From contig DUAN01000228.1 in assembly GCA_012960845.1 (NCBI GenBank), forward strand, positions 1 through 57,951: 57,951 bases of DNA, written 5' to 3'. Positions 38,982 through 57,817 of this stretch are shown here, in pieces. Within the stretch, counting starts at the first letter, position 1. Every line of letters starts with the position of its first letter. Source of the stretch: Planctomycetota bacterium. GTDB taxonomy: Bacteria > Planctomycetota > UBA8108 > UBA1146. The position numbers were made by a program, and so were the translations under genes. Below the pieces are notes generated by a model. That model did no database searches. It had not been told where the DNA came from and saw nothing but the letters and a program-made list of their open reading frames with translations.

Positions 38982-39181
38982 GATGTCTCCATTCAAAGTG
39001 CTCCGCTCAGCGGGTCACCAAAGGTGTCTATTCTTGAAGTGGATCATTTCTGAAGAAGTTCCACAAGCCATCCGGGGGTCGAGAGCACACAACTCCATCG
39101 CACGCCTGTATCCGGAATCGCAACGCACTCGGACAGATTTTCACAGGAGACTGCATTGGATCAATGATCCCCTACTGGCCT

Positions 39182-40545: not shown

Positions 40546-40549
40546 CGCC

Positions 40550-41209: not shown

Positions 41210-41321
41210 CGGTGTCCTTTCGCGCCCTCCAGGAGCCATCGTGAACCGAGATCGTGCCCCCAGATGGAGCGGGTCGCAATCCCCGATCGACGAGGATAAC
41301 CTACCTACCTGGAGGATAGCG

Positions 41322-41882
41322 ATGTCCTTACCGGACTCCATCGAGACCGATCGCCTGCTCCTGAGGAAATGGCGCGCCGCAGATCGCGATCCACTGGCAG
41401 CGTTGCTCGCCGATCCTCTCTACCATCGCTTCATGCCAGGTCCGAGCCCTCGATCCGCTGCTGACGCCCAATTTGAACGGATCCAACAAAAGATCGAGAT
41501 CCACGGATTCGGGCCATGGGTCGTGGAGTTGCCCGACGAAGCACAGTTCATCGGATTCCTCGGCCTCGGAATCCCTCGACACACCCTACCTGCGAGCCCC
41601 TGCATCGAGATCGGCTGGCATCTCATCCCCTCCTTCTGGGGCCAGGGGTATGCCACCGAGGGAGCCAGAGCATCGCTCCAGTTTGGATTCGAACATCTGG
41701 GGCTCGATGAAATCGTCAGTTTCACGGTTCCCGCCAACATCGCCTCTCGTCGCGTCATGGAAAAGATCGGCATGAGCCGTGATCTCGATGGCGATTTTGA
41801 TCACCCGGCACTGGAACCGGGGCACCCGCTTCGCCCCCACGTTCTCTACCGGATCCAGCCTGCTGAACTCGATCAAGCGTGA
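41322..41882 (+). CDS. GNAT acetyltransferase, RimJ/RimL-like
   Basis: Motifs ETDRLLLR, EIGW, WGQGYATE and N.ASRRVMEKIGM. GGAGG RBS. Confidence 0.9.
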   Translation: MSLPDSIETDRLLLRKWRAADRDPLAALLADPLYHRFMPGPSPRSAADAQFERIQQKIEIHGFGPWVVELPDEAQFIGFLGLGIPRHTLPASPCIEIGWHLIPSFWGQGYATEGARASLQFGFEHLGLDEIVSFTVPANIASRRVMEKIGMSRDLDGDFDHPALEPGHPLRPHVLYRIQPAELDQA

Positions 41883-41888
41883 ACTCGA

Positions 41889-43730
41889 TCAGGCCTGAAC
41901 CGTCGACAGCGCCTCGGCGATGGCGGTCACGATCTGCGAGTTCTGCTGCGGTGATTTGACCGCAGTCCTCAGCGCATGGGTTCCCAGTGCACTTCCCATG
42001 TTGCTGGCATCCCTCAGATGAACTCCCGATCGGCGACAATGTTGGATGACCTGAGCGGCGGTCGGGCCATCGGCGGGAAGAAAAGTCAAAAGAAAGTTGG
42101 CCACCGATGGAATCACCTCGAGCCCCAGTTGTTGAAGGTCTCTGGCCAGCGACTCGCGAGCCAACGCAGTCGCCTGATATTGGGTCTGGTAGTACTCGGG
42201 ATCCTCGAGTGCCTTCACCGCTGCCACCTGACCCGGCAGACTGACCGCCCACGGTGGAGTCAACGCTCGCAACGGTTCGAGGATCTCTGGAGACGCACAA
42301 AGATATGCCGAACGCACCCCCGACAGTGCATAGCCCTTCGACATCGACTTGCAAACCACGACATTTTTTCGCTGACAGCCAAACTGTTCCAGTGAATGGG
42401 CGCTACCGACGTACTCGATGTAGGTTTCATCGATCCAGAAGCGAGTGGATGATGGGGTAGCCTCGATGATCGACTGCAACTCGCTCATCGGAAGGTGACA
42501 GCCGGTGGGACTGTTGGGATTGACCACCACTACCAGGTCGTAGTCGCCCGTTGCAAGTTGCCCTTGCAACCGTTCGCCAGCGACTTTGAAGCCATCTTCG
42601 CGGCGCAGTTGAAAACGATCGACCTGACAACGCAGAACCTGTTCGCAGACATGAAAGTACTCGCCATAGGATGGATCGAGTAGCAGCACCCGGCTCGATG
42701 ACGAGAGCCACCGATTGAATGCGAGGAAGATCAGATCGGATGATCCGGCCCCCGGCAAGATAGACGATCCCGGCACACCCCTCGCCGCAGCGATCGCTGC
42801 GATCAGGCCCTCGCAACCGGTCGGAGGCGATGTTCGCACCAGCCAGTCGAGGTGCTCGGAGAGGGTCGAAATCACCCCGGGAGCGGCGGGGAACCATGCG
42901 TCCAGAACATCGGCATTGATGATCTCCTGCCGTCGCGAAAGGGTCTGAAAGCCATCGCCCACATCAACGAAGAAACCTCCGCCATGAAAGCAAGCCGATG
43001 GTTTTCTCAGCGGAAAGGGCAGTTGCCACTCCACCCTCTGTTCAATCCGAGCGACCAGTTGAGGTCGCTTCTCGACCTGCTCGCGAATTTGATCGACGGA
43101 GGCGCTCATCAACCGAAAGGTCACGGCACCCCTGACCAGTTCGATTCCATGATCCTGATATCCGCTGCTGCGGTAGATGGAGGCCACCTCGGTGCGACCG
43201 ATGACGACCAATCGAGTTCCTCCGCTCGCCTCCACGGCTCGAAACGAGGCATACATCAGCGCTGGCGCCAGAAGCGATCCCCGCCGTCCAGAGTTGACCG
43301 TCAACAGCCGAACCTCGAATAACCGATCGCGATCCTCGAAGGGCCACTGTTTTCGATCGAGGTAACTATCGAGGGAGTACTCGCCTCCCTCCGGAGGGGT
43401 GATGCTGATGAAGCCAGCCATCTGCCCATCGATGATCGCGACGAAGTAGCGATTGAACTGATCCAGATGATTTTTCAGTATTCCATCGGGGTTCTGCGGG
43501 TGCTGACCCAGTTCGACCGCATAGACATCATGCCTGGTGCGATAGATCTCCTGACGATCCTGCTCTGTCGCCTCTCGGATCACCATCGCGGCGGCAGATG
43601 GCTCGCCTCCTCCAGCCAGTCCACCGTGCTGGATCACCTTCTCGGTGCTGATTGATTCGATCAAGGTCGCCACTCTTTCACCGTGCTGAGTTGAAGCCAG
43701 ATTTTCCTGTAGGCTGTTCGCCACGCACAC
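41889..43730 (-). CDS. Fusion of an N-acyltransferase (GNAT/FeeM-like) and a HisC/CobD-like PLP enzyme
   Basis: N-terminal IYRTRHDVYAVELG and FEVRLLTV; C-terminal FHGG, VNPNSPTG, IDETY and KSMSKGYALSGVR. The true start may be 43673 or 43586. Confidence 0.8.
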   Translation of the reverse strand: MCVANSLQENLASTQHGERVATLIESISTEKVIQHGGLAGGGEPSAAAMVIREATEQDRQEIYRTRHDVYAVELGQHPQNPDGILKNHLDQFNRYFVAIIDGQMAGFISITPPEGGEYSLDSYLDRKQWPFEDRDRLFEVRLLTVNSGRRGSLLAPALMYASFRAVEASGGTRLVVIGRTEVASIYRSSGYQDHGIELVRGAVTFRLMSASVDQIREQVEKRPQLVARIEQRVEWQLPFPLRKPSACFHGGGFFVDVGDGFQTLSRRQEIINADVLDAWFPAAPGVISTLSEHLDWLVRTSPPTGCEGLIAAIAAARGVPGSSILPGAGSSDLIFLAFNRWLSSSSRVLLLDPSYGEYFHVCEQVLRCQVDRFQLRREDGFKVAGERLQGQLATGDYDLVVVVNPNSPTGCHLPMSELQSIIEATPSSTRFWIDETYIEYVGSAHSLEQFGCQRKNVVVCKSMSKGYALSGVRSAYLCASPEILEPLRALTPPWAVSLPGQVAAVKALEDPEYYQTQYQATALARESLARDLQQLGLEVIPSVANFLLTFLPADGPTAAQVIQHCRRSGVHLRDASNMGSALGTHALRTAVKSPQQNSQIVTAIAEALSTVQA

Positions 43731-43784: not shown

Positions 43785-44660
43785 TTAGCGATCGATCAGT
43801 TCCTGGTGAATCACTCGAATATGCTCAGGAGTTGTGCCACAGCATCCGCCGACGATGCTGGCTCCTGCGTCGATCCAAGAAGCGGCCAATTGGCCATAGA
43901 GTTCAGGTCCAATGGCGTCGGAGGAGATCCAGTTTCCCGCTTCATCTGCGTGGCCAATATTTCCATAAGCAAGAATCGGAGTTTGATCCAGATCCTGACG
44001 AAGCAGTTTGACCTGATCCACGATGGAGTGCGGAGAAACGCAGTTCACACCGACTCCCTGCGCGTCCTTGATATCCTCCAGCAAGGGTTGCCACTTCTCA
44101 CCGCTCAAGAGAACCCCTGGGGGCCCGGCACTGCGAGTACAGAAACTGATCATCCATTTTCCTTCTGCCACTCGACGTGCCGCTCGAATCGCAGCTCTGG
44201 CTTCGCTCAGATGATTGATCGTCTCGATCAAGATCAGATCTACACCGGCTTCGATGAGATGTTCCATCCACTCGAGATGTTCCTGAAAACACACCTCTTC
44301 ATCCGGCACGAGGTCAGGTCGATAGCAATCTTCAAGAGGAGCGACTGATCCGAGAACCAACGCATCTCGACAGATCTCGTCACGTGCATCCCTTGCGATT
44401 TGAACCGCCTGTCGTGTCAGTTCCGCGGCTCGGTCTCCCAGTCCCGCTTTTTCCAGAACTCGGCGGTGAGTTCGGAAGGTGGCGGTGGTGATGGCCTGGG
44501 CTCCTGCAGTGAGGTAATCGCGATGCACTTGGGCCAGAACCTCTGGCGCATCGAGCAGCGCTCCGGCCGACCACAGGGGCAGGGAGAGATCGACCCCTCT
44601 TTGCTCCAGTTCTGAACCGGTGGCACCATCGATGAGTTGAAGGGCAGACGGATGGACCAT
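43785..44660 (-). CDS. Homocysteine S-methyltransferase family protein
   Basis: Motifs LIDGATGSEL, LWSA, GSVAP, GVNC and GGCCGTTP (Zn cysteines). ATG at 44660 follows GGAGGG. Confidence 0.9.
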   Translation of the reverse strand: MVHPSALQLIDGATGSELEQRGVDLSLPLWSAGALLDAPEVLAQVHRDYLTAGAQAITTATFRTHRRVLEKAGLGDRAAELTRQAVQIARDARDEICRDALVLGSVAPLEDCYRPDLVPDEEVCFQEHLEWMEHLIEAGVDLILIETINHLSEARAAIRAARRVAEGKWMISFCTRSAGPPGVLLSGEKWQPLLEDIKDAQGVGVNCVSPHSIVDQVKLLRQDLDQTPILAYGNIGHADEAGNWISSDAIGPELYGQLAASWIDAGASIVGGCCGTTPEHIRVIHQELIDR

Positions 44661-44790
44661 GAGTTTCCCTCCAGAGATGGCGGCAGTTTCACTGGATTCC
44701 GATGACCAGAAAATTCTGCCGCCAGTAAATACCAATCGTTCGCCGATCCGCCTCGAATCATCGACCGTGGAGCACCACCAGAACTCCATT

Positions 44791-44843
44791 GCGGATGCAC
44801 TCTGTGGCGGATGCACCCTGTGGCGGATGCACCCGGTGGCGGA
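44791..44843. repeat. 16-bp tandem repeat x3 (GCGGATGCACYCKGTG)
   Basis: Read directly from the sequence. Confidence 0.9.
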
Positions 44844-45011: not shown

Positions 45012-47912
45012 CTATGTGGTCTGCCGTGCGACCAGCCCGGCAAAAGTGCCTTCTGCTGCGACCAGCTCGCTGTAAGTCCCCTGCTCGACTACACGGCCTC
45101 GATCGAGCACGTAGATGCAATCGGCAGCACGAATCGAACTGAGTCGATGGGCGATCACGATGCGCGTGACACGCCTTCGATTGAGGCTGTCGTTGACAAT
45201 CTTCTGGGCCTTGTTATCGAGGGCACTGGTAGCCTCGTCGAGGAACAGGATCTTGGGCCTTCGGATCAGCGCGCGGCAGATGAGGATGCGCTGTCGCTGG
45301 CCACCTGAAAGATTACTACCCCCCTCGCTGATCACCGTATGCATCTGCATCGGCATCTCGCGGATGTCATCTGAGATTCCCGCCTCTTCAGCCGCCTCCC
45401 ACGCCTGCTCCATCGAATAGACCGAGCCCACCGTGATGTTCTCGAAGATCGAGCCAGCACCGAGATGCCCCGATTGGAGCACCACTCCCAGTTGCCTGCG
45501 GACGGCGGTGGCATCGATCGAATCGACATCCTGACCATCGAAGCGAACCTCACCGCTTTCGGGACTCTCGAATCCGAGCATCAGCCGCAACAAAGTCGAC
45601 TTTCCGCACCCCGAGGTTCCGGTCAAGGCGATCATCTCACCTGGCCTGGCATGAATCGTCACATCTTCCAGCACCTTGGGACCCTCTGGTGAATAGCGGA
45701 AGTGGATCCGTGAGAGTTCGACCTCTCCCTTCAACTTCCCTGGATCGACGCTGGCGGTAACCGTTTCCATCTCTGCGGTCATCAGAGGCTTCATCCGTTC
45801 AGCGAGTACCGTGGTATCGAGGAAACCCACGACGGTTGCACTCAAGGTCAGTGCACCGGCGAGGAAGATCCCGAGGGCGGTATTGAACGCGAGGAACACA
45901 CCGATGGTCATCGGTGACTGACCCGGATCTTGCCCGGTGACCAGCGGAATCGCCAACATGAACAGGATCAATGTACTCAGTGTCGGGATCGCCATGTTGA
46001 AGAGTCCAAGGCCATCGACGATCCTCTGGACGCTGTTGGAGAGGCTCAACTGCTTCGCGACCCGCTCCATCCACAGGGCAAATGCCCGCCGTTCTGCACC
46101 GGCAACACGCAGTTTGCTCACGGCACTGATGAGTTGGACTTCGAAACCGAGCAGTTCACCTTCCTGCTCCATCAACTTCTTCGCATATCTGCGAATCAGT
46201 ACCCCCCCGATCATGGTGACGACTGCCACCAGAGTGGCGATGACGATGGCCACGAATGCCAGGGTCGAGTTGTAGTAGAAGAGCAGTACCACGTTGAGCA
46301 GTGCCATGAACGATGTCATCAGGGTCAACAAGGTCGAACCGCTGAACTCCTGGCTGATGGCGTGAGCGGCGGAGACACGTTGCAACAGGTCCCCGGTGGA
46401 GTACTTGGAGAAGAAGGACACCTTGAGTCGCAACAATCGATCCCAGATGGCGGATTGAGCATCGAAGTCGGTGATCACCGACAATCGGATGCTGACGAAG
46501 GCCTGGAACACCCTCAGCAGGGTCATCCCGATCGTAACGCCAATCAGCGCTGCGCCCAGTTCCATCAACAGTCTCGGGTTCGAGTCGGGGATCGCGGTAT
46601 CGAGCATGATGGCCATCGCCTGCGGAATCAGCATCCCCATCACCGTGAGAAGCATCGCAGCGAAGAAGAACGAGGTCACATCGGCGAACTTGTTATGAAG
46701 ACAGAACTTCACCAGGCCGAAGGGACTCTTCTCATTTTCGTCGAGGGATCGGATCAACACCAGGGCATCCTTCTCGAGTAACCGAGAGGTGGATTCGGTC
46801 ACGATCGTTCGCGAGTCATCCCGTGGATCGTAGATCAGGTAGTGCCCCCTGCGATCCTGCAAGATCGCTACCGGCCTGCCATCCTGCTCGAGATATGCGA
46901 CCAGTGGGCCGACGTCACGAGTCCACCACTTTCCGCGGAAGACGACGCGCCTCTGCTGAATCCTCGAAGCTCTGGTGATCGCCTCGGCTGGATCGCTCAG
47001 CGACTCCATATCGGTGGAATCGGCGATGGGCAAGATCTCGATCCCCTTCTCGGCTCCGACCAGTTTCATGACGGAAAAGAGATCTTCTCCACGGATCGAC
47101 TGGGTCTCCTGCGGGTTCAACACCGAAGCCAGTTGCGAGAGAGCTTGTTCTGATCTCTTCCCCTCGATGATCTTTCTTCGTTTCACACGCTCGAGGTTAT
47201 GATCCCCTTCACGAGACCTGGATACGGACCTGACCTCCTGGATGCAACGGTGCAGTCGTAGCAACGCAGACGATGCGGTTGAAACGGCAACTTCAGTTCG
47301 ATCGAGTACCTCGAATTCCATCTCCTCGCTCGCTTCGATCCAGCACCCTGCAGGAGCCAGTACCACATCATCTTCGAAGGAGATGTGATGTTTTCCCGCC
47401 AGCAGACCCTTCCCACGAACGACGCGAATCCATCCTTCTCGATCGGCCGGCGGAGCGACCCTGTGCCCGATAGAGATCACACGACTCTCTCCCTCGACCC
47501 ATCTCTCGCAGGAGGAGGGCACCGGCTCGGGATCGAGCAGAGGATAGACCTGCGTTGCCCAGGCCTGGATCACCTCGACCGCAGAGGAACCGAGCGATTG
47601 CGCTGCGAACTCGAGCCGTTCTCTCGGCAACTCGAGAACTCGTAGTGATTCGGTCGAAAGCACCATGGCAGAGTGAGTATCCTCACTCCGTTCTGCAGGA
47701 ATCGAGAAGAGAAAATCACCAGCACTGATGTCCCGGATGAGTCGACGACGTCCGGTGGCATGAGAACCCACCACGTCGGTGGCCACCAGTTCTCCCTGCC
47801 CATCGATGACGACCCAGACCAGATCGGGATCGTTGAGCAGCAGCGATAGATGCCCCGAGACGAGGCGAACCGTTCCATTCTGCTCGAGGAGTTGCGGTTC
47901 AATATTCATCAT
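45012..47912 (-). CDS. NHLM-type bacteriocin-system ABC transporter, ATP-binding/permease subunit without active peptidase
   Basis: N-terminal cNMP-like barrel, WW..D.GP, KLRVAGAERRAFALW, Walker A GTSGCGKST, LSGGQRQR and DEATSALD. ATGA overlap with the upstream ABC gene. Confidence 0.92.
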   Translation of the reverse strand: MMNIEPQLLEQNGTVRLVSGHLSLLLNDPDLVWVVIDGQGELVATDVVGSHATGRRRLIRDISAGDFLFSIPAERSEDTHSAMVLSTESLRVLELPRERLEFAAQSLGSSAVEVIQAWATQVYPLLDPEPVPSSCERWVEGESRVISIGHRVAPPADREGWIRVVRGKGLLAGKHHISFEDDVVLAPAGCWIEASEEMEFEVLDRTEVAVSTASSALLRLHRCIQEVRSVSRSREGDHNLERVKRRKIIEGKRSEQALSQLASVLNPQETQSIRGEDLFSVMKLVGAEKGIEILPIADSTDMESLSDPAEAITRASRIQQRRVVFRGKWWTRDVGPLVAYLEQDGRPVAILQDRRGHYLIYDPRDDSRTIVTESTSRLLEKDALVLIRSLDENEKSPFGLVKFCLHNKFADVTSFFFAAMLLTVMGMLIPQAMAIMLDTAIPDSNPRLLMELGAALIGVTIGMTLLRVFQAFVSIRLSVITDFDAQSAIWDRLLRLKVSFFSKYSTGDLLQRVSAAHAISQEFSGSTLLTLMTSFMALLNVVLLFYYNSTLAFVAIVIATLVAVVTMIGGVLIRRYAKKLMEQEGELLGFEVQLISAVSKLRVAGAERRAFALWMERVAKQLSLSNSVQRIVDGLGLFNMAIPTLSTLILFMLAIPLVTGQDPGQSPMTIGVFLAFNTALGIFLAGALTLSATVVGFLDTTVLAERMKPLMTAEMETVTASVDPGKLKGEVELSRIHFRYSPEGPKVLEDVTIHARPGEMIALTGTSGCGKSTLLRLMLGFESPESGEVRFDGQDVDSIDATAVRRQLGVVLQSGHLGAGSIFENITVGSVYSMEQAWEAAEEAGISDDIREMPMQMHTVISEGGSNLSGGQRQRILICRALIRRPKILFLDEATSALDNKAQKIVNDSLNRRRVTRIVIAHRLSSIRAADCIYVLDRGRVVEQGTYSELVAAEGTFAGLVARQTT

Positions 47913-50098
47913 GCGCTGGTCTCCTTGAACTCATCGTCCAGTTTCAGGAGATTTGCGTAAGCACCTGCTGCGCTCCACAGTTGATCGTGGTTTCCACGCT
48001 CAACGACTTTTCCGTGTTCCAGAACGATGATCTCGGTGCAATCCCGGATGGTGCTCAATCGATGAGAGACGAAGATGGAGGAGCAGCCTCGCATCCTCAT
48101 CCGATCGAGTACCACTCTTTCCGTCTCGGTATCGAGAGCACTCGTCGCCTCGTCGAGGATCAGGATGGTCGGGTTGGGCACCAGGGTCCTGGCGATTTCC
48201 AGTCGCTGTCGTTGCCCTCCGCTGAGGTTATTGCCGCCTTCGATCAACTCCGCATCGAAGCCGCCGGGGAGGGCGGTGATGGTCTCGAGGATCGCAGCAT
48301 CTTCACATGCCTGGTGCAGGTCTGAGTCAGGCACCGTGGAATCCCACAGGGTGAGGTTGTCTCGAACGGTACCGCTGAAGAGGAGGATCTCCTGGCTGAT
48401 GAAGGAGAAGGAATTGACGAACTGATTCCTCGGTAACTCGGAGAGTGGAACCCCATCGAAATAGATCTCGCCGCTCCACGGAACCAGTTCTCCAGAGATC
48501 AACTTGGCCAGCGTCGATTTGCCGGAGCCACTTCCACCGACCAGCGCCACTCGGTCCCCCGGTTTGATGTGCATGTTCATATCCTCCAGCATCGGAGGCT
48601 CCAGCGGATTGTAACCAAAGGAAACATTCTCCAGCCGGATGTCTCCCGACAGGAACACCTTCTCGCCCTCCTGCTCATCCGAGTCGGCCATCTCGAGGGC
48701 CGCTCTCTCGAAGGGGTACTTCAGCACATCGTCGATGCGGTCGAGATCGCCCCTCATCTCCTGGGATACCGTGCCGAGGTCGAGCAGGTTTTCGACCGGC
48801 CCGAGAAAACTACCCATCAAGGACTGGAAGGCGACCAGCATACCGATGGTCATGAAGCCATCGATGACACGGAATCCCCCGACGATGATCACCAGTACCG
48901 TTGCCAGTGCGCTGAGCAAGGTGGGCATCGTCGACAACAGCACATTGGAGACCTGCAGATTTTGCTGGGCGTTGATCGCCTTGGAGTAGTAGCCGGACCA
49001 CTTCTCGTAGAAGCCAGATTCCAGACCACTCGCCTTGATCGTCTCCATCCCCTTGAGCCCGGCCATCGCCGTTCCCTCGGCCTTTCCGAACTCCTGGAGC
49101 ACACGCATCGAAGCCTCGATGCGGCTGGCAGAGATCCAGCGCAACAAGGTGAAGTTCAGAAGTGCCACGCACAGCCCCACGCAGGTCAGTAACACGTCGT
49201 AGTAAAGCATCACCGTCAGATAGAGACCGGCCATCACCACATCGATGGCAGTCTGTGCCAATCGCCCCGAGATGTCGCTGGCGAGTTCTTCATTCAATCG
49301 GCTTCGACTGGCGACCTCTCCGGCAAATCTCTGGACATAGAACTCGTTAGGGAGTTGCAAGAGATGCCAGAGGAACTGACTCGACAACTTGATCGTCAGG
49401 TTCAATCGAAGTCGGCGAAGTGAATTCATCTGCAAGTACCTGAGTGCCAGTCCCAGAAGGATGGCGGAGAACATCCCCAGCATGACGGGGCGAGCCCAGT
49501 CCACTCTCCCCTGCAGGATGATCTCATCGAGGAAAACCTGCAGCAGTACCGGGAACAGGATCCCCGGAATCACCATCAAGAAGCCCACGAAGATGCAGAA
49601 CACAACGGGAAGAGCGGACCCGGCGAGCCGTTCCGCCACAGCCCCGATCAAACTCGGCCTCTTGCCGCCCTTCTCGAACTGCTCCCCTGGCTGCATCGCC
49701 AGCGCGACTCCGGTGAAACTACGTTCGAAGTCGCTGATCGAGATGATCCTGTGTCCCATCGCAGGGTCGTTGATGTACACCCTGTCCTTCTTGAAACCTT
49801 CCAGCACGACAAAATGGTTGAACTCCCAGAAGAGAATGCAGGGCATCTGCAGATTTCGCAGGGCATCGACGCTGGCCTTGATCCCGTTGGCTTCGAGTCC
49901 ATATCGTCGTGCGGCACGCAGGATATTGGCAGCCTTGCTGCCATCACGAGAGACTCCGCAATTCTGACGCAACTTGGCGAGCGGTTCGATCCTGCCGTGA
50001 TATCCGAGGATCATCGCAAGAGATGCAGCACCACATTCCACGGCCTCCAGTTGGAGGACGGTCGGCGTCTTCACCCTTTTTCCTGGACCGATGGCCAT
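47909..50098 (-). CDS. NHLM-type C39 peptidase-containing ABC transporter (PCAT)
   Basis: TPTVLQLEAVECGAASL (catalytic Cys), WEFNHFVV (His), INDPA (Asp), GGSGSGKST and LSGGQRQR. Confidence 0.95.
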   Translation of the reverse strand: MAIGPGKRVKTPTVLQLEAVECGAASLAMILGYHGRIEPLAKLRQNCGVSRDGSKAANILRAARRYGLEANGIKASVDALRNLQMPCILFWEFNHFVVLEGFKKDRVYINDPAMGHRIISISDFERSFTGVALAMQPGEQFEKGGKRPSLIGAVAERLAGSALPVVFCIFVGFLMVIPGILFPVLLQVFLDEIILQGRVDWARPVMLGMFSAILLGLALRYLQMNSLRRLRLNLTIKLSSQFLWHLLQLPNEFYVQRFAGEVASRSRLNEELASDISGRLAQTAIDVVMAGLYLTVMLYYDVLLTCVGLCVALLNFTLLRWISASRIEASMRVLQEFGKAEGTAMAGLKGMETIKASGLESGFYEKWSGYYSKAINAQQNLQVSNVLLSTMPTLLSALATVLVIIVGGFRVIDGFMTIGMLVAFQSLMGSFLGPVENLLDLGTVSQEMRGDLDRIDDVLKYPFERAALEMADSDEQEGEKVFLSGDIRLENVSFGYNPLEPPMLEDMNMHIKPGDRVALVGGSGSGKSTLAKLISGELVPWSGEIYFDGVPLSELPRNQFVNSFSFISQEILLFSGTVRDNLTLWDSTVPDSDLHQACEDAAILETITALPGGFDAELIEGGNNLSGGQRQRLEIARTLVPNPTILILDEATSALDTETERVVLDRMRMRGCSSIFVSHRLSTIRDCTEIIVLEHGKVVERGNHDQLWSAAGAYANLLKLDDEFKETSA

Positions 50099-50103
50099 GT
50101 TTT

Positions 50104-51546
50104 CTAGTTACCGCCCATTTCCCTGAGAAATGGCAACAAGAAGGTGATCGGTTGCCGGTTCTCGATGGTCGCATCTACTGTCACCGTCATGCCCGAGGTG
50201 ATTGCGATGTCCGGACCCTTTCCCGAAGACCACTGGTACCCACTGTGCGCCTCATCATCCGTACGCAACCGGCTACGAACCTCGATCATCGATCCTCCGG
50301 TCCCCAGGCTCATCGCCAGTTCCCGATTGCCCACGATGGCGGCGATCGAATCGGTCGAACGAGGTACCGACGATACGCTGGTGATATCACCAAGGATGCT
50401 ACCGAAGCGTTCGCGTTTGATGGTGGTCGGGGTGATGCGAATCTTCATTCCAGAATGGATCTTCTTGCCATCCTTGACCGGGAAGTACGCCACGGCGATG
50501 AGCCCATCCGCATCTCCGGAACTCTCGATCACTCCGATTCTCAATCCCGGCGTCAGCATCTGTCCGGCAGATACGGTCAACTCGAGGATTTTACCGCTCC
50601 TCGGCGAGGTGATGATCGACTGGTGGTTGAGATTCCTCGTCAACCTCTGCACACGACCTTTCGCTTCGGTCAACTCGAGACGGTTCTTGGTTTCGGCAGT
50701 CAACTCCGCCTGATCCAGCCTGGCCAGCTGGACTGCCAGTTCTTCCAGATTTCTCTGCAGCTCCTCGACGGCGTCGAGGCGCACCTGATGTTCTGTCAGG
50801 AACTTCAACCTCTGGAACTCGACTTCCTGCTGTTTCAGCTGGAGTTCAGAGATGGCCACCTTGTTATTGAGGAGTTCCTGTCGAGTGTCGGTGAGTTCCT
50901 GATCGTAGGCAGCGAAGATCTTTTCCTCGGTCAGTCCCTCGAAATCGGTCAACTTCTTGCTGAGAAACTGACCGAGAATTTCGAGGTCCGCCTGGACCAC
51001 CGTCAGTTGCTGCGACTGGCCCGCCAGGTATCGATCACTCTCAGCGTGGCGAGCGTTGGCCAGCGAGGTACTCGACTCGATTTGTTTCTGATACCAGTTC
51101 CGCTTCGCCTCGATGAACTGCTTCTCGGTGGCGAGAGTGAACTTACGAAGCGGCTCGATGATGGCGATCTTGGTTTCCAGCTCCTCGAGGAGTTGCTGCT
51201 CCACGGCGAGTTGCTCGACCAGTTCCGGCTGGTATACCTCGCCGAGAAGTTGCCCCTTGGTGACCTCGTCGCCCACCTCGACATCGAGTTGCAGCAGTTG
51301 TCCCTGGGAGTGACTCTGGAGCGGCACGATCCGTCCGGGAAAGACCATGATCCCGTTGGCGTTGAGATTGACCGGAATCTGGCCGAAGACACACCAGAAT
51401 CCGAAGCCAAGGAACCCGAGCCCCAGTACCAGCAAAGGCAGCCAGTTCCTCCGGGGAAGAACCTGCAACATCGTATCCAGCTGCTCCGGCGTCGAGATGT
51501 GTTCGAGTGCCTTTTTTCGAAACAGTGACGGCTTTTCAGCGGACAA
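50104..51546 (-). CDS. NHLM-type HlyD membrane-fusion secretion protein
   Basis: LFRKKALE..STPEQLD, one TM helix, long coiled coil, YQWSSGKGP and PITFLLP. Confidence 0.93.
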   Translation of the reverse strand: MSAEKPSLFRKKALEHISTPEQLDTMLQVLPRRNWLPLLVLGLGFLGFGFWCVFGQIPVNLNANGIMVFPGRIVPLQSHSQGQLLQLDVEVGDEVTKGQLLGEVYQPELVEQLAVEQQLLEELETKIAIIEPLRKFTLATEKQFIEAKRNWYQKQIESSTSLANARHAESDRYLAGQSQQLTVVQADLEILGQFLSKKLTDFEGLTEEKIFAAYDQELTDTRQELLNNKVAISELQLKQQEVEFQRLKFLTEHQVRLDAVEELQRNLEELAVQLARLDQAELTAETKNRLELTEAKGRVQRLTRNLNHQSIITSPRSGKILELTVSAGQMLTPGLRIGVIESSGDADGLIAVAYFPVKDGKKIHSGMKIRITPTTIKRERFGSILGDITSVSSVPRSTDSIAAIVGNRELAMSLGTGGSMIEVRSRLRTDDEAHSGYQWSSGKGPDIAITSGMTVTVDATIENRQPITFLLPFLREMGGN

Positions 51547-51582: not shown

Positions 51583-52146
51583 TCAGTTCCGGGTCGCTCG
51601 CTCGAGCAAGTATTCGAAACGTCGGCTCGCCAGCGAAAGCGCCTCGAGAATCTCCGGATCCACCACCGAACTGCCCTCCACCTCACCCGGGTTGGCCGAA
51701 CCGACCTTGCCAACGGTGCTGACGGTCAGGGTAGTGTGAGTGAGATGGATCAATCGTTGCGCCAGGACGACTCCGAGGGCCCGGTAAAAGCGACTGGCGA
51801 AGCCGGTATCATTGCTGAGTTTTGTCTTCAGGTCCGATCGTGAAATCTGCAGTACCGTGGTCGATTCCGCAGCGATGAGGGTGACTGCTGGAGGCCTCGA
51901 ATCGAGCAGTGAGACTTCACCGACGATTTCGCCAGGGTAGACGGTAGCCAGAACCTTGCTGGTATCGTGGACGGTGGTCACCGTCAGTGCGCCATCGAGT
52001 ACAAACCCGATGAACTCGATATGGACACCCTCTTCGATGAGGATGTCGCCTTCCTGAAGCACGGTCGTCTGCCCGACCCGCACGAACCACTCGATATCTT
52101 GATCCTCGAGGACTCCAAGGATGATGAGGGAATTTCTCAACCACAC
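51583..52146 (-). CDS. Cyclic-nucleotide-binding-domain protein associated with bacteriocin-type transport
   Basis: Motifs ILGVLEDQDIEW, GEIVGEVSLLDSRPP and FASRFYRAL. Start may be TTG 52140. Confidence 0.85.
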   Translation of the reverse strand: MWLRNSLIILGVLEDQDIEWFVRVGQTTVLQEGDILIEEGVHIEFIGFVLDGALTVTTVHDTSKVLATVYPGEIVGEVSLLDSRPPAVTLIAAESTTVLQISRSDLKTKLSNDTGFASRFYRALGVVLAQRLIHLTHTTLTVSTVGKVGSANPGEVEGSSVVDPEILEALSLASRRFEYLLERATRN

Positions 52147-52224
52147 ACCTCACTACTGCAGCGAGTTTGCACCGTGACCAATTGACCAGAAATCAGCAAA
52201 GAATGCTCCCGATATAATAAAACC

Positions 52225-52257
52225 GACCGTTTCCGCTCCGAGGGAGCAGAAACGGTC
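52225..52257 (-). terminator. Hairpin terminator/attenuator between the precursor and transporter genes
   Basis: GACCGTTTC/GAAACGGTC plus GCTCC/GGAGC stems, followed on the minus strand by GGTTTTATTAT. Confidence 0.65.
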
Positions 52258-52333
52258 AGTCGATCCGCACCAAGGTCCACACAGCAGAACTGAAGAACCC
52301 ATCATGCTCGATCCGGGCAAGTCACAGGAACTA

Positions 52334-52543
52334 CTATTTACCGCCGGTGAATTTGCCCTTTTGCCCCTTGTTTGCGTCCATGCCCTTAATTTCTGTGTCA
52401 GTCGGGCCCTTGGCATCACCACCGGACATACCATCGGCCTTACCCACTGGTTTTTTCCCTGGAGTTTTCTTCGAATCTCCGGCTCCTCCGGCGATACCTT
52501 CCAGGTCCGCGTCTGCGACTTCTTCGGGTTCCCAGTTGCTCAT
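52334..52543 (-). CDS. Double-glycine leader precursor peptide (69 aa)
   Basis: MSNWEPEEVADADLEGIAGG matches the ELxxxxLxxIxGG leader pattern. Purine-rich RBS, tandem TAG TAG stops, first gene of the PCAT cluster. Confidence 0.85.
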   Translation of the reverse strand: MSNWEPEEVADADLEGIAGGAGDSKKTPGKKPVGKADGMSGGDAKGPTDTEIKGMDANKGQKGKFTGGK

Positions 52544-52718
52544 GATTACTTCTCTCTTGGAAATCGATGTTTTGAATCGTGACCCCAAAAGTGGGTCTAA
52601 TGTTCTTTGGGTGAGTGATTTCCGGCGGCTCACCCTTGAACCGTCAACGTCGTCGAGAACGATCCTTCCAATTTCTTCGAAATGATATGGCGGGCACTTC
52701 GTAAAAATCCACCTGGGA

Positions 52719-52752
52719 CACGAACCACGGCACGAACCACGGTACGAACCAC
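52719..52752. repeat. 12-bp tandem repeat x3 (YACGAACCACGG) upstream of the precursor gene
   Basis: Read directly from the sequence. Confidence 0.85.
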
Positions 52753-53213
52753 ACGCAAAAAGAAATCGATCAAACCAGTCGACATTCGCAGTTTAAATCA
52801 GATCGATAGCACCCGCCATGACCGACTCACCAACCTCATCCGCCCGCTATAACTCCTTATGATACAATATATTATGATTACTCTCGACTGACGCCGCGGC
52901 GTCACCTTCCGATATTAAGACAGCCAAGTCGAGAATTGTCCAGGTGCGTCGAGGATCCAGACGATCGTTGCATCTGAACACCCAAAGAAATGAACCGCAC
53001 CAGGGCTACGGAAGAGGATGGCTACCGAGGAGGAGGATCGATCCAGCGGGAGCCGAGCCACTCGGTCGTACCTCCGCTGCAACTCGTTCGGTTCCAGCGA
53101 ACTCCTTCGATCATCGCAGCCAGCAAGGGCACGCCCTTCCACCATCGATCCCCATCGAAGTTCAGCAGATGACCGTGATCATGATCGGAAGAATCCCATG
53201 GTATCGTACCCCC

Positions 53214-56200
53214 ATGAATTCCTCCGCCTCTCCTGCCACTTCCTCTCCTGCCACTTCGTTACAGCGTCCTCCGCGGTGGCCGCTGGCAGTGGTGCTCCTG
53301 CTCCTCGGCGGCTCGGTGGCACACCCTGTCGCCGCAGCAGACATCGATTTCAACGACACGATCCGGCCGATCCTCTCCGACCGCTGCTTCCCCTGCCACG
53401 GTCCCGATGCCGCGGCAAGAAAGGGCCGATTGCGACTCGATCGAAGGGAAGATGCGCTGGCACCACGGCCCGACGGTGCCGCCATCGTGCCGGGTGATCC
53501 AGCCGCCAGTCTGATCCTCGAGAGGTTGCACCTCGATGATCCGCAGGAGCGCATGCCTCCCCCCTCCTCGAAACTGGAAATCAACAGCGAGGAGATCGCC
53601 TCGATCGAACGCTGGATCGCCGAAGGAGCCCACTACCAGCAACACTGGTCCTTCCTCCCCCCGGTCGCAGCGGCGATCCCCGAGGTGCAGGACCCGCAGT
53701 GGCCCGCCGGAACCATCGACCATTTCATCCTGGCGAAGCTCGAATCCAAGGGGCTCCGGCCGGCGGCTACGGCACAACGAGAGACGCTGGCACGACGTGC
53801 GGCCTTCATCCTCACAGGAATGGCAGCGGATCTCGATGCTCTCGACCGCCACCTCGCCGACCGATCGACCGACGCCTGGTCCCACTGGATAGATTTCCTG
53901 CTGGCGTCCCCCGCCTTTGGCGAACAGATGGCGAGTCATTGGCTCGATGTGGCCCGCTATGCCGACAGTCACGGTTATCAATCCGATGTTCACCGCTCGA
54001 CCTGGCCGTGGCGAGACTGGGTCATCGATGCCTTCAACGACAACCTGCCCCATGATCAGTTCATCACCTGGCAGGTCGCCGGGGATCTGCTGGAAGATGC
54101 AACCCAGGAACAGATCCTGGCGACCACCTTCCAGCGGCTTCACCGCCAGACCAACGAGGGAGGCAGCGTCGAGGAGGAGTTTCGCGCCGAGTATGTTGCC
54201 GATCGCACCCAGACCTTTGCCAGCGCATTTCTCGGTCTGACCCTCGAGTGCGCAAGGTGTCACGACCACAAGTTCGACCCCTTGAAGCAGCAGGAGTTCT
54301 ACTCCCTCTCGGCGTTCTTCGACAACATCGATGAGAGTGGCCTGTACTCCCACTTCACCTCGGCAGTCCCGACCCCGGCGCTGGCGCTGGTCGATGAGGA
54401 GGCACGCAGCCAGATCGAACAACTCACCGGAGAAGTCGAGGCTGCAGAAACTCATCTGAAGCAGCTCGAACGCTCGAGACGCGAAGAGTTCGCCCGCTGG
54501 CAACAGGGCCAGCAGGGCTCCCACCCTTCCCCCATCATCACCGATGTGGTCGCTGCCTATTGCTTCGACGAGATCGTCGAAGGCAAGTGTGAGAACCAGA
54601 TCAATCCAGAACTACCCGCCACTGCTCACGCCGCCCTCTCCCTGATGGATGGGATTCAGGGGAAAGCGATTCGACTGACCGGAGATGATGCACTCGGTTT
54701 GGGAGCGATCGGCGCCTACAGCCGTAGTGATCCCTTCAGCATCTCGCTGTGGATAAGACCGGAGGAGACGACCGATCGTGCGGTGATCCTCCATCGCTCG
54801 CGAGCGTGGACCGATGCTGCCAGCCAGGGGTATCAGTTGCTGCTGGAGCAAGGACGCCTGTCTGCTGCACTGATTCACTTCTGGCCCGGAGATGCCATCG
54901 CGGTCGCCAGTCGCCAACAGATCGAAGCGGGGCGCTGGAGCCATATCGTCTTCTCCTACGACGGGTCGAGCCGAGCCGCCGGAATCGACCTCTACATCGA
55001 TGGCCAACTCGCCCCGAAGGAGATCGTACGGGATCATCTGCGCTCTCCCATCACCGGAGGCGGACCCTACTTCGCCATCGGAGAACGATTTCGCGACCGA
55101 GGTTTCAAGGATGGTGGCGTCGACCAGATGCAACTGGTGGGACGCTCCATCAGCGCCGCCGAGGTGCGCAAATTGTATCTCGCCGGGAAAGACCCCGACG
55201 CAGTGCCTCAATTCGAAGAAGAGGAGTTGTATCGCTGGTGGTTGCTGGCGATGGACGAGGTGACCCGCACCGCTCGGGACCAGCTGGCTAGCGCACGGAA
55301 AGCCCACAACAACTTCACCGATCGACACCCGAAGATCATGGTGATGGAGGAGATGGCCACCGCCCGCCCCACCTACCTGCTCAAGCGTGGCCGTTACGAT
55401 TCACCGGGAATCGAGGTGTCACCAGATGTGCCGGCGATCCTGCCTCCGCTCCCCGATGGAGCCGCCCGAAACCGACTGACGCTGGCTCGCTGGCTCGTCT
55501 CGGAGGGTCATCCGTTGACGGCAAGGGTCGCGGTCAATCGCCTGTGGCAGATCGCCTTCGGGCAGGGGATCGTTCCCACCTCTGGTGACTTCGGTAGCCA
55601 GGGTACGAGGCCCTCGCACCGACAACTTCTCGATCACCTCGCGACAGATTTCATCGGTGGGGGCTGGAACCTCAAGGCGACTCTCAAGAAGATGCTGCTC
55701 TCTGCCACCTGGCGACAATCTTCTGCCGTCGAGCCCCGATCGAAGTCCATCGATCCCGACAACCGCCTGCTGGCACGGGGACCATCGCTTCGCATGTCCG
55801 CCGAGATGATCCGCGATCAGATGTTGCAGTCGAGTGGATTGCTGGTGACCACCATCGGCGGACCACCGGTACTTCCCTACCAGCCACCCGGACTGTGGCA
55901 GGAGAAGAGTGGTCATACCTACACCCCATCGAAGGGGGATGGATTGTACCGCAGGAGCCTGTACACCTTCTGGAAGCGTACCTCTCCTCCACCCACGATG
56001 ATGATCTTCGATGCTTCCAAGCGTGATGTGTGCGTGACCTTTCGACATCGCACCAGTACTCCGATGCAGTCGCTGGTGTTGATGAACGATCCCCAGTTCG
56101 TCGAGGCCGCAAGGATGCTCGCACGACGGGTGATGCTGGATGATCGGAAGGAACCGACCGGAACCATCGGCCTCGCTTTCCGGCGGCTCACGGGGCGGCG

Positions 56201-56405
56201 CCCCTCTACACCCGAGTTAGAGATCCTGCAGCAACTCCACCAGCAACTGTTACTCGAGTTCCAGGAGGATCCGCAAGTCGCGACACTTTGGCTGCAGGTG
56301 GGTGACAGTCCGCTCGATCCCTCCATCGATCCGATCGAATGGGCCGCCCTGACAGCGGTCTGCTCTTCTCTGATGAACCTGGATGAAACCACGAGGTTGA
56401 GATGA
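53214..56405 (+). CDS. Planctomycete cytochrome c / DUF1549 / LamG / DUF1553 protein
   Basis: Signal peptide; CFPCH and CARCH heme motifs; HWSF, WLDVARYADS, HPLTARVAVNRLWQ and RRSLYTFWKR. Confidence 0.93.
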   Translation: MNSSASPATSSPATSLQRPPRWPLAVVLLLLGGSVAHPVAAADIDFNDTIRPILSDRCFPCHGPDAAARKGRLRLDRREDALAPRPDGAAIVPGDPAASLILERLHLDDPQERMPPPSSKLEINSEEIASIERWIAEGAHYQQHWSFLPPVAAAIPEVQDPQWPAGTIDHFILAKLESKGLRPAATAQRETLARRAAFILTGMAADLDALDRHLADRSTDAWSHWIDFLLASPAFGEQMASHWLDVARYADSHGYQSDVHRSTWPWRDWVIDAFNDNLPHDQFITWQVAGDLLEDATQEQILATTFQRLHRQTNEGGSVEEEFRAEYVADRTQTFASAFLGLTLECARCHDHKFDPLKQQEFYSLSAFFDNIDESGLYSHFTSAVPTPALALVDEEARSQIEQLTGEVEAAETHLKQLERSRREEFARWQQGQQGSHPSPIITDVVAAYCFDEIVEGKCENQINPELPATAHAALSLMDGIQGKAIRLTGDDALGLGAIGAYSRSDPFSISLWIRPEETTDRAVILHRSRAWTDAASQGYQLLLEQGRLSAALIHFWPGDAIAVASRQQIEAGRWSHIVFSYDGSSRAAGIDLYIDGQLAPKEIVRDHLRSPITGGGPYFAIGERFRDRGFKDGGVDQMQLVGRSISAAEVRKLYLAGKDPDAVPQFEEEELYRWWLLAMDEVTRTARDQLASARKAHNNFTDRHPKIMVMEEMATARPTYLLKRGRYDSPGIEVSPDVPAILPPLPDGAARNRLTLARWLVSEGHPLTARVAVNRLWQIAFGQGIVPTSGDFGSQGTRPSHRQLLDHLATDFIGGGWNLKATLKKMLLSATWRQSSAVEPRSKSIDPDNRLLARGPSLRMSAEMIRDQMLQSSGLLVTTIGGPPVLPYQPPGLWQEKSGHTYTPSKGDGLYRRSLYTFWKRTSPPPTMMIFDASKRDVCVTFRHRTSTPMQSLVLMNDPQFVEAARMLARRVMLDDRKEPTGTIGLAFRRLTGRRPSTPELEILQQLHQQLLLEFQEDPQVATLWLQVGDSPLDPSIDPIEWAALTAVCSSLMNLDETTRLR

Positions 56406-57817
56406 ACCGCCCGCGAGAGCCACTTCCGAACCGTAGAGATTTCCTCTCCGCTGCTGCGGGTCTCGCAGCAGGGGGAACCCTGTGGGGTTGGCTCCCCTCC
56501 AGTGGCCATTCGATGGATGTCCCGCTTCAGAACACTGCAGCGAGAGCCCGCCGCGTCATCTGGTTATTCCAGAGTGGCGGACCATCCCAGATCGACCTGT
56601 TCGATCCAAAACCTCTGCTCCAACAACGTCACGGCGAGCAACTTCCCCCATCGATCCGCATGGGACAGCGACTCACTGCCATGTCAGGCAATCAATCCTC
56701 CTTACCGCTGGTGGCGAGCCCCTTCCAGTTCGCTGCTCATGGTGAATGCGGATCGCAGTTCAGCGAGTTACTGCCGCACACCGCAGCGATCGCCGACAAG
56801 TTGTGCATCGTCCGCTCGCTGCACACCCAGGCGATCAATCACGACCCGGCCATCACCTTCGTCCAAACCGGGTCCGAGATCGCTGGAAGACCTTCGATCG
56901 GAGCCTGGCTCTCCTATGGTCTGGGAGCAGGGAATCCAAACCTTCCGGCGAGCATCGCCATGGTGACCCAGAACAAGAGTGGACAGCCGCTCTATTCACG
57001 ACTGTGGGGAGCGGGCTTCCTGCCTTCAGAACATCAAGGGATCCAGTTCCGTTCCGGCAAGGACCCGGTGCTCTTCCTCCAGGATCCCGACGGATTGTCG
57101 AGATCGATGCGGCGAAAGATGCTCGATGCATTGCTTCGACTGCACGATCTCCAGGATCCACAATCGCGCCCGCACAGCACTACAGCCAATGACCGCAACG
57201 AACTCGCCTGGCGGATGCAAACCTCGGTGCCAGAGGTCGCCGACCTCTCCGATGAGCCCGACGAGATTTTCGAGATGTACGGTAAGGACTCCAGGACTCC
57301 AGGAACCTACGCTGCCAACTGCATCCTCGCCAGACGCCTCGCCGAGCGTGGTGTTCGATTCACCCAGTTGTTCCATCAGGGCTGGGATCAGCATGGCAAT
57401 CTTCCAGGGGCGATTCGAACCCAGTGCCGGGAGACGGATCAGGCCTCCGCTGCGCTGGTTCTCGACCTGGAACGGCGCGGACTGCTCGATGACACCCTGG
57501 TCATCTGGGGCGGCGAATTCGGGCGCACCAGTTATTGCCAGGGCAAGTTGACTCCACAGGGATTTGGCCGCGATCACCATCCTCGCTGCTTTTCGATGTG
57601 GATGGCCGGTGGCGGCGTGAAGGCGGGACTCACCTACGGCTCGACAGACGACATCGGGTACAACATCAGCGAGAACCCGATGGATGTTCATGACCTGCAG
57701 GCCACCATCCTCCACCTGCTGGGGCTCGACCACGAGAAGCTGACCTACAAGCATCTGGGGAGGCGATTCCGACTCACCGATGTCCATGGCAAGGTGATCG
57801 AACCGCTGCTGGCGTGA
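56402..57817 (+). CDS. DUF1501 family protein with Tat signal
   Basis: NRRDFL twin-arginine motif; GGPSQIDLFDPKP, ARRLAERGVRF, GGEFGRT and GRDHH. Confidence 0.93.
   Translation: MNRPREPLPNRRDFLSAAAGLAAGGTLWGWLPSSGHSMDVPLQNTAARARRVIWLFQSGGPSQIDLFDPKPLLQQRHGEQLPPSIRMGQRLTAMSGNQSSLPLVASPFQFAAHGECGSQFSELLPHTAAIADKLCIVRSLHTQAINHDPAITFVQTGSEIAGRPSIGAWLSYGLGAGNPNLPASIAMVTQNKSGQPLYSRLWGAGFLPSEHQGIQFRSGKDPVLFLQDPDGLSRSMRRKMLDALLRLHDLQDPQSRPHSTTANDRNELAWRMQTSVPEVADLSDEPDEIFEMYGKDSRTPGTYAANCILARRLAERGVRFTQLFHQGWDQHGNLPGAIRTQCRETDQASAALVLDLERRGLLDDTLVIWGGEFGRTSYCQGKLTPQGFGRDHHPRCFSMWMAGGGVKAGLTYGSTDDIGYNISENPMDVHDLQATILHLLGLDHEKLTYKHLGRRFRLTDVHGKVIEPLLA

Follow-up and report, generated by a model that had tools for sequence, protein, structure and literature searches.

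Here, we present an analysis of a small gene and the export operon that follows it in a Planctomycetota bacterium (NCBI GenBank assembly GCA_012960845.1). The window, i.e., the whole stretch of DNA analyzed, comprises positions 1 to 57,951 of contig DUAN01000228.1. A 69-codon open reading frame (ORF) on its minus strand encodes a peptide with a 20-residue leader and a Lys/Gly-rich core, and genes for an exporter with a C39 peptidase domain lie downstream. We found that this ORF is a real gene, that its leader follows the recognition rules of C39 peptidases, that the peptidase is intact, that the genes for the peptide and the exporter are linked and co-occur, and that the core is hypervariable. 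We consider it probable that the gene encodes a double-glycine-leader precursor that is cut once, after Gly20, to release an unmodified, disordered, Lys/Gly-rich polycation for export; we infer from the sequences that there is one cleavage, that the core is exported, and that it is not modified. The gene and the export operon are made up as follows.

52334..52543, minus strand: precursor gene, 69 codons plus stop codon, defined from the ORF list, the sequence, and the homologues
52484..52543, minus strand: leader of the precursor, residues 1-20
52337..52483, minus strand: core of the precursor, residues 21-69
51583..52146, minus strand: protein of 187 amino acids (aa) with a cyclic-nucleotide-binding (cyclic nucleoside monophosphate [cNMP]) domain (PF00027, E 3.5e-15); alternative start, TTG at 52140
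50104..51546, minus strand: HlyD-type periplasmic adaptor of NHLP export (TIGR03794, 301.9 bits; cut-off, 156.2)
47909..50098, minus strand: peptidase-C39/permease/ATPase exporter (PCAT) (TIGR03796, 1028.6 bits; cut-off, 853.3; PF03412, E 8.5e-38)
45012..47912, minus strand: second ATP-binding cassette (ABC) permease/ATPase, without a peptidase domain (TIGR03797, 826.1 bits; cut-off, 709.4)

The peptide belongs to a family that has so far carried no name. A word-indexed search returned 14 homologues of 58-72 residues, in all of which the 20-residue leader is identical, and core identity among them falls to 56%. A profile built from 23 diverse members extended the family to 52 clusters, and an exhaustive phmmer search added two, giving 54 family clusters; run against 1.8 billion cluster representatives, phmmer gave only three matches. 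All 54 clusters are unnamed or annotated as "hypothetical protein" and derive from metagenome-assembled genomes of Planctomycetota. Among the 61 genomes searched (the genome of the window, G000, and 60 relatives), the family was found in 14, every one of which belongs to a single planctomycete taxonomic family; within the window's own genus, seven of the eight other genomes carry it. Against Pfam and NCBIfam at E values of up to 10, the window peptide gave no matches, and nine relatives gave only sub-threshold matches to the leader parts of bacteriocin models. Look-alikes in the ESM Atlas scored 0.84-0.85 at best, which makes them chance-level leads, and one of the clusters has ComC in 19% of its members. 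We found no publication on planctomycete double-glycine peptides, although the supplementary tables of cyanobacterial precursors in PMC3140520, which lay outside this survey, could hold similar Lys-rich cores. The export system and the logic of the leader are already known; it is the peptide family that is unannotated.

The precursor starts with an ATG at 52543 on the minus strand, and its leader ends in Gly19-Gly20, preceded by Ile17 at -4, Glu at -6, Leu14 at -7, Asp at -8, and Val9 at -12. The Gly-Gly at -2/-1 that marks double-glycine substrates is present in 54 of 54 clusters, all of which also keep Ile/Val at -4, Leu/Met at -7, Asp at -10, and Val/Leu at -12; Glu at -6 is kept in 53. The last 13 residues of the window leader conform to the rule described for such substrates, which calls for an acidic residue near -8 or -6 in addition to hydrophobic ones at -4, -7, and -12 (PMC6363468). 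Based on that work, the hydrophobic residues at -4, -7, and -12 together with the Gly-Gly are the contacts used by LahT150, and the substitution of Leu-7 by Lys or Asp, or of Leu-12 by Lys, Asp, Phe, or Trp, impairs cleavage (PMC6363468). Because these contacts, which in the window are Ile-4, Leu-7, Val-12, and the Gly-Gly, are kept in 54 of 54 clusters, we regard a single cut after Gly20 as well grounded. Codon differences in the leader between genomes are mostly synonymous (seven synonymous and two nonsynonymous between G000 and G005), arguing for purifying selection on the amino acid sequence of the leader. The 69-codon ORF is a real gene.

The operon downstream encodes an export system of the NHLP type: TIGR03794, TIGR03796, and TIGR03797 all score above their curated cut-offs, and the three genes are contiguous on the minus strand. 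After the precursor gene, the order on the same strand is a hairpin, the gene for the cNMP protein, and those for HlyD, the C39-ABC exporter, and the second ABC protein. Over its N-terminal 150 aa, the exporter, which is encoded three genes downstream of the precursor, is homologous to the LahT protease domain (6mpz; E 8.9e-45), and the motifs of its catalytic residues Cys22, His95, and Asp111 align with those of 6mpz and 4ry2. The cNMP protein has one PF00027 domain and scores 108.1 bits against TIGR03896 (cut-off, 161), covering positions 139-316 of the 317 in the profile, i.e., its second half; it falls short of this family, whose members have two cNMP domains. The N-terminal 275 aa of the second ABC protein have a weak resemblance to cNMP-binding domains (PF00027, E 0.012, under the cut-off).

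Linkage of the peptide and the exporter is recurrent. Four full operons have precursors directly upstream, one in the window and three in relatives (loci L015, L016, and L018; genomes G024, G018, and G023). In G024 and G018 there are four tandem precursor genes each, with differing cores, and tandem paralogues in the relatives each have their own leader and their own ribosome-binding tract. The cNMP gene adjoins the peptide gene in nine of the 11 other loci searched; one of the two misses is a contig end, and in the other (G004) the peptide and the exporter are on separate contigs. All 14 peptide-bearing genomes among the 61 hold the exporter (12 above the cut-off, two as fragments at contig ends), and six genomes have the exporter without a detected peptide; because the genomes are kin, these co-occurrence counts are not independent. 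The initial annotation had proposed that homologues be sought next to similar transporters, and this is where they lie; its view of the gene as a double-glycine-leader precursor that would be cut after residue 20 likewise agrees with the leader rules seen in all 54 clusters.

The transport gene set is that of the NHLP three-gene transport cassette (Haft et al. 2010, PMC2887384). The locus also resembles the cyanobacterial "group V" bacteriocin clusters (Wang et al. 2011, PMC3140520), in which one to several genes for short precursors precede those for a short C39-ABC protein, a second ABC protein that lacks the peptidase, HlyD, and a stand-alone cNMP (CAP_ED) protein. It differs from these systems in that the hosts form a planctomycete family rather than being cyanobacteria, that the accessory protein has one cNMP domain instead of two, and that a minimal 20-residue leader, not one of the NHLP/Nif11 kind, precedes Cys-free, Lys-rich, disordered cores. 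Consistently, a leader of 20 residues without an NCBIfam or Pfam match at E values of up to 10 falls outside the long-leader NHLP/Nif11 group. In the LahT/LahA and ProcA systems (PMC6363468), the C39 domain is the nearest solved homologue (6mpz), and the leaders have the same hydrophobic residues at -4, -7, and -12 followed by Gly-Gly; however, as described there, LahA and ProcA are precursors of lanthipeptides made by LanM, and they combine a long leader of the Nif11 type with a core rich in Cys, Ser, and Thr. The peptide here has a short leader and no Cys, and no LanM is encoded nearby.

The core of 49 residues contains 11 Lys, 12 Gly, 5 Asp, 1 Glu, and no Cys, and Phe is its sole aromatic residue; the initial annotation had counted these features exactly (49 aa, 11 Lys, 12 Gly, no Cys, one aromatic residue). 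With six acidic residues, its net charge is +5, and its grand average of hydropathy (GRAVY) is -1.27. This composition is extreme, as only 32 of 200,000 random 49-residue windows of this genome reach a sum of Lys and Gly of at least 23, the background in ORFs of at least 200 aa being 2.6% Lys and 8.8% Gly. Based on shuffling with the composition fixed, the GG and KG/GK motifs are not enriched: the core contains two GG, where its 20,000 shuffles average 2.68 (P for at least the observed count, 0.82), and KG and GK occur four times each, against 2.7 each (P 0.25). The family cores are similar in kind. Across the 54 clusters, they have 32-80 residues (median, 43), a median Lys content of 23%, a median GRAVY of -1.39, and a net charge of at least +1 in every case; 52 are Cys-free, and only four, the window core not among them, have a 15-residue window above zero hydropathy. 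The earlier description of a hydrophilic, Cys-free core unlike pore-forming bacteriocins or lanthipeptides thus fits both the window peptide (GRAVY -1.27) and its family (52 of 54 Cys-free). AlphaFold2 with a 14-row alignment gave a mean predicted local distance difference test (pLDDT) value of 60 and almost all coil, i.e., no fold is predicted.

The sequence of the core turns over within a genus. Cores of different species within a genus cannot be aligned and have 18-37% identity to the window core, whereas across the same species the leader has 60-90% identity and the cNMP protein, where found, 80-87%. At the DNA level, the identity between G000 and G001 is 74% in the 5' region, 81% in the leader, 56% in the core, 61% in the 3' spacer, and 82% in the cNMP gene, and the shuffled baseline for the core (56 ± 1.8) equals the observed 56%. 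Through this turnover, the composition persists, as does one short hydrophobic-Pro/Ser-Gly motif, and the core can be described as a hypervariable island of preserved composition.

The regions on either side of the precursor gene hold the following elements.

52549..52558, minus strand: Shine-Dalgarno-like purine-rich tract, 6-15 nucleotides (nt) 5' of the ATG
52544..52790, minus strand: conserved upstream region, with a mean column identity of 74-77% and numerous invariant blocks among six genomes of the genus
52717..52752, minus strand: 12-nt direct repeat (GTGGTTCGTRYC), three copies in tandem, within the conserved upstream region
52211..52261, minus strand: intrinsic-terminator-like hairpin of 19 pairs (10 G-C) with a U-rich run, from a consensus scan, in the spacer between the precursor and the export genes

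An equivalent G+C-rich hairpin with a U-rich run, with differing stem sequences, is found in the spacer between the last precursor gene and the cNMP gene in nine of the nine loci folded. A terminator between precursor and transporter genes is the usual route to precursor mRNA in excess of transporter mRNA. In G023, about three tandem copies of a unit of ~22 nt follow the terminator hairpin in this spacer (L014:1678-1962). Searching 52100..52950 with Rfam gave only matches below the gathering score over the terminator hairpin (Atu_L6, 26.8 versus 100 bits; Hrs13, 20.3 versus 52 bits). In the six genomes of the genus, the ~240 nt upstream of the gene are better conserved than the core-coding DNA, and 52544..52790 probably comprises the 5' leader and the promoter. 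Consensus folding of this region predicted 47 pairs, nearly all invariant, with a covariation term of 0.01. Because the pairs are invariant and do not covary, we claim no structure for it, and because there is also no Rfam match above the gathering score, the region may be a promoter/operator or a structured 5' leader. Just 5' of the ribosome-binding tract is an invariant pair of GGAAATC (-80) and GATTTCC (-22). GAGAG at -13 is present in six of six genus loci that share the conserved upstream blocks, and other genes of the family are preceded by other purine tracts. The copy number of the repeat GTGGTTCGTRYC in the six aligned genomes is 3, 3, 2, 0, 0, and 0. A sigma-70-like promoter match at 52887..52859 was discarded, as it does not fit the ends of two RNA-library contigs, which terminate with adapter letters at 52740 and 52768, near the repeats at 52717..52752.

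Four RNA libraries, each from a different study and labelled hydrothermal vent, marine, or seawater, yielded assembled contigs that cover the ORF. Among the contigs listed for one library at ~52284-52646, the main-depth ones have word depths of 160-994 and the others 6-14, and a 7.5-kb contig of the same library that extends into the operon has a depth of 16; uncovered stretches and contig depth are unusable as measures of expression, and we take these values as no more than a weak hint of strong, separate transcription of the precursor.

We propose the following mechanism. The acidic 20-residue leader would form a short helix, of which Ile17, Leu14, and Val9 would dock in the hydrophobic groove of the C39 domain of the adjacent exporter. 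The C39 peptidase would then make one cut, after Gly19-Gly20, and the 49-residue core would be exported via the NHLP-type machinery of C39-ABC exporter, second ABC protein, and HlyD adaptor, with export probably gated by the cNMP-binding accessory protein. The hairpin terminator between the precursor and export genes would let the precursor mRNA exceed the transporter mRNA. The mature product would most likely be an unmodified, intrinsically disordered Lys/Gly-rich polycation with a net charge of about +5. Several points weigh against this proposal. Cleavage, export, and the product are deduced from sequence; the RNA evidence consists of assembled contigs, which cannot rank expression and may contain DNA; and the extracellular role is suggested by composition and analogy. 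The genome is 91% complete in 243 contigs, and modifying enzymes may therefore be encoded elsewhere. The operon contains no gene for an outer-membrane channel, and the cNMP accessory protein scores less than the TIGR03896 cut-off and matches half of that model only. Finally, D-[GS]-M-S-G-G inside the core is kept in 12 of the 14 close homologues, opens the half of the core that is conserved best, and seldom arises in shuffles (23/20,000), which leaves some probability for a second processing event.

Double-glycine peptides of C39 ABC transporters are usually interpreted as bacteriocins; the few that have been studied in Gram-negative phototrophs have other roles, e.g., in biofilm formation and possibly in cell differentiation. 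Our leading guess, put forward tentatively and by analogy, is that the exported core binds by charge to cell surfaces or a polyanionic matrix in the manner of the EbfG proteins, as the tandem paralogues, the absence of accessory genes, and a disordered, polycationic make-up are most like those of small secreted factors of the matrix or surface. EbfG1-4 of Synechococcus elongatus are small double-glycine proteins that are encoded in tandem and matured by the C39 transporter PteB, and, as described, they have no immunity gene or sensor kinase alongside and act extracellularly, not as antibiotics (PMC4997328). Unlike in the family described here, which is known from sequence alone, their function in biofilms has been demonstrated genetically; moreover, the EbfG peptides quoted there are Tyr/Pro/Ser-rich (PMC4997328), and the likeness to the family is by description and not by direct sequence comparison. 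More speculatively, the family may represent a distinct class of PCAT cargo, i.e., exported disordered polycations under selection for charge, flexibility, and the hydrophobic-Pro-Gly motif that would serve as extracellular polyelectrolytes and not as antibiotics or lock-and-key signals. If so, marine planctomycetes could use them to condition surfaces, to bind acidic polysaccharides or extracellular DNA, or to glue cells to particles, and the DNA encoding the core would persist as a hypervariable island, flanked by a leader and regulatory regions that are conserved. As an unnamed family of uncultured marine and vent-associated planctomycetes, these peptides would extend the picture of double-glycine peptides that are not bacteriocins. 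The locus is a candidate for a non-antibiotic role of C39 exporters and a simple case in which to test how far processing can be predicted by leader rules from LahT150; no new processing mechanism is revealed.

Other readings bear on the role, the maturation, or the nature of the product. The neighbours scanned include no conserved modifying enzyme, immunity-like ORF, or two-component system. It is unlikely, in our view, that the precursor gives rise to a peptide pheromone, i.e., a species-specific signal with a receptor, the cores being pherotypes as in streptococcal ComC/CSP or the proposed substrate of HetC. A conserved leader with a core that is hypervariable within a genus does resemble pherotype diversification, and the cNMP-binding domains suggest regulated export. 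HetC of Nostoc PCC 7120 is likewise a C39 ABC exporter coupled to a cNMP-type domain and is thought to export a regulatory peptide, and its cNMP domain binds ppGpp and is needed for function (PMC10986499). However, as described in that paper, the domain of HetC is fused to the transporter, and there is no adjacent HlyD, whereas here the domain is in a separate protein and a candidate substrate is encoded next door. The language-model neighbour cluster with ComC in 19% of its members (score, 0.84) is a lead only. On the other hand, there is no histidine kinase or response regulator among the neighbours scanned, and a lock-and-key ligand would be expected to be shorter and more tightly constrained than cores of 33-51 residues with no fixed sequence. 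That the composition is conserved and the sequence is not fits a bulk physicochemical function better.

We judge it just as doubtful that the product is a class II microcin-like bacteriocin that kills competitors, perhaps after receptor-mediated uptake and not by forming pores. A double-glycine leader with a C39 exporter is the classic route of microcins and class II bacteriocins (PMC6363468, PMC4997328), hypervariable cores are compatible with an arms race, and the only sub-threshold family matches of the relatives are to bacteriocin leader regions. In the colicin V type of class II microcins and bacteriocins, the leader, the C39 ABC exporter, and a HlyD-type adaptor are indeed shared with this locus; however, their hydrophobic or amphipathic cores and adjacent immunity gene have no counterpart here. 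The spacer between the precursor and cNMP genes has just 187 nt and is occupied by the terminator, and the small ORFs upstream overlap the variable-copy repeat, so that there is no candidate for a small hydrophobic immunity protein. The core has no hydrophobic or amphipathic segment (GRAVY -1.27; no 15-residue window above zero hydropathy), and its net charge is modest (+5, with six acidic residues). The formation of membrane pores seems unlikely. Similarly, a lanthipeptide or another Cys-dependent ribosomally synthesized and posttranslationally modified peptide (RiPP) is at odds with a core without Cys and with neighbours in which the scan found no synthetase family.

We consider it improbable that the product is a RiPP whose Lys residues are acylated, carbamoylated, or methylated by enzymes encoded outside the operon, with the leader serving both enzyme and exporter. 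Cyanobacterial ribosomal peptides with acylated Lys use a similar type of exporter (PMC8784127, PMC13060382). In G024, a protein of 1065 aa that fuses the N and C domains of a carbamoyltransferase to a small-domain methyltransferase is encoded directly 5' of four precursor genes on the same strand (L015:12707-15904), and in the window, an aminotransferase-domain protein with a sub-threshold match to FeeM-like N-acyl synthases is encoded two genes past the operon. However, neither the window nor L016 or L018 has the carbamoyltransferase fusion, and no such enzyme is conserved beside the locus; the FeeM match reaches 20.2 bits against a cut-off of 27, and the genes past the second ABC gene in G024 are on the opposite strand. 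A leader of 20 residues is a minimal exporter tag and not of the long NHLP/Nif11 type that recruits maturases, and the cores have no family-wide conserved positions beyond a general richness in Lys. For the suggestion in the initial annotation that the repeated KG units are sites of acylation or oxidation, we found nothing in favour: KG is not enriched, and no modifying enzyme is conserved at the locus.

Even less probable is a multi-core precursor, in which the C39 peptidase or another protease would also cut after Gly41-Gly42, and perhaps near the C-terminal Gly-Gly, to give pieces of ~22 and ~27 residues. DGMSGG (residues 37-42) and the terminal FTGGK, from which this was initially proposed, are confirmed in the sequence. 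Residue class by residue class, DGMSGG parallels EGIAGG, the end of the leader; M-[SP]-G-G is present in 13 of the 14 close homologues and starts the best-conserved half of the core, and a six-residue echo of the leader end ([DE][GS][LIVMF][AS]GG, a pattern defined post hoc) arises in only 23 of 20,000 composition-preserving shuffles of the core. However, in all 13 homologues with M-[SP]-G-G, the internal site has A, G, or T at -7 and K, D, or G at -12, and cleavage by LahT150 is crippled by charged residues at -7 and -12 (PMC6363468). The two-turn helix needed for recognition is unlikely, because the stretch ahead of the internal site is Pro/Gly-rich. Among the 54 family cores, none contains [LIVMF]xx[LIVMF]xGG, and 24 have no internal GG at all; the GG count in the window core is what its composition leads one to expect. 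In the wide alignment, the internal site lines up with motifs such as F-P-G-T, F-P-S-P, and M-P-G-F, all without GG. Because it aligns with hydrophobic-Pro/Ser-Gly-x motifs that often lack GG, we suggest that the conserved internal element is a short motif and not a cleavage site. The terminal GGK (as in FTGGK) is present in three of 14 homologues, whereas the final Lys alone is present in all 14, and the two proposed halves are mutually dissimilar. Complex prediction with the C39 domain (residues 1-150) and the core alone (residues 21-69) gave a score of 0.02 (mark, 0.32), which speaks neither for nor against docking of the internal site. The internal Gly-Gly is conserved among close homologues and often lost in wider relatives, and the multi-core proposal is not supported, given the absent -7 and -12 contacts, the 24 cores without an internal GG, the dissimilar halves, and the rarity of FTGGK. 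That the ORF is not secreted, being either a chance ORF or a regulatory upstream ORF that controls the transporter genes via the hairpin, is extremely improbable: the conserved 5' region and strong hairpin that flank it would suit such a role, but the leader is under purifying selection as protein, fits the protease recognition rules in 54 of 54 family members, and is repeated with a ribosome-binding tract in each of four tandem paralogues of the relatives, and the family is confined to genomes that hold the exporter. We therefore keep to the single-cut, unmodified polycation as the preferred reading.

Directly after the operon, the window encodes a homocysteine S-methyltransferase and a 613-aa protein with a class I/II aminotransferase domain, the latter having the sub-threshold FeeM-like match (41889..43730 and 43785..44816, minus strand); this pair may belong to lipid or amino acid metabolism. 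As candidate modifying enzymes, the two were rejected, because the synteny is not kept in G024. The carbamoyltransferase-methyltransferase fusion of G024 is absent at the window locus and in G018 and G023. Further along, a protein with a cNMP-binding domain and a haem-oxygenase-like iron redox domain (37830..38996, minus strand) adjoins three tandem genes of the AIM24 family (39182..41341). On the other side of the locus, a divergent pair (52944..57817, plus strand) consists of genes for a PSCyt1/PSCyt2/PSD1 protein that carries a Laminin_G_3 domain and for a DUF1501 protein bearing a twin-arginine translocation (Tat) signal; this pair also flanks the locus in G018, and its large member does so in G003 as well.

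Elsewhere in the window's own genome is a second set of at least six or seven small ORFs with double-glycine leaders (C37:448-907; C50, at L019:5763-6188 and ~5470-5650; C152:122-328; C183:1904-2086), on short contigs and several of them in tandem. The leaders in C37, C50, and C152 have ~26 residues, are Lys/Asp-rich, and end in D-V-A-G-G, and that in C183 is distinct, with 32 residues and the same ending. The cores of this set are hydrophilic, some with a Cys-containing Asp-rich motif and some with a His run. In C50, which is partly masked, the ORFs are followed by a gene for an S-adenosylmethionine-dependent methyltransferase (L019:4553-5374). In the same genome, a 390-aa open frame (C221:1828-2220) contains another Peptidase_C39 domain, which scores above the cut-off (40 bits) and may belong to a separate processing or export system for the second leader family.

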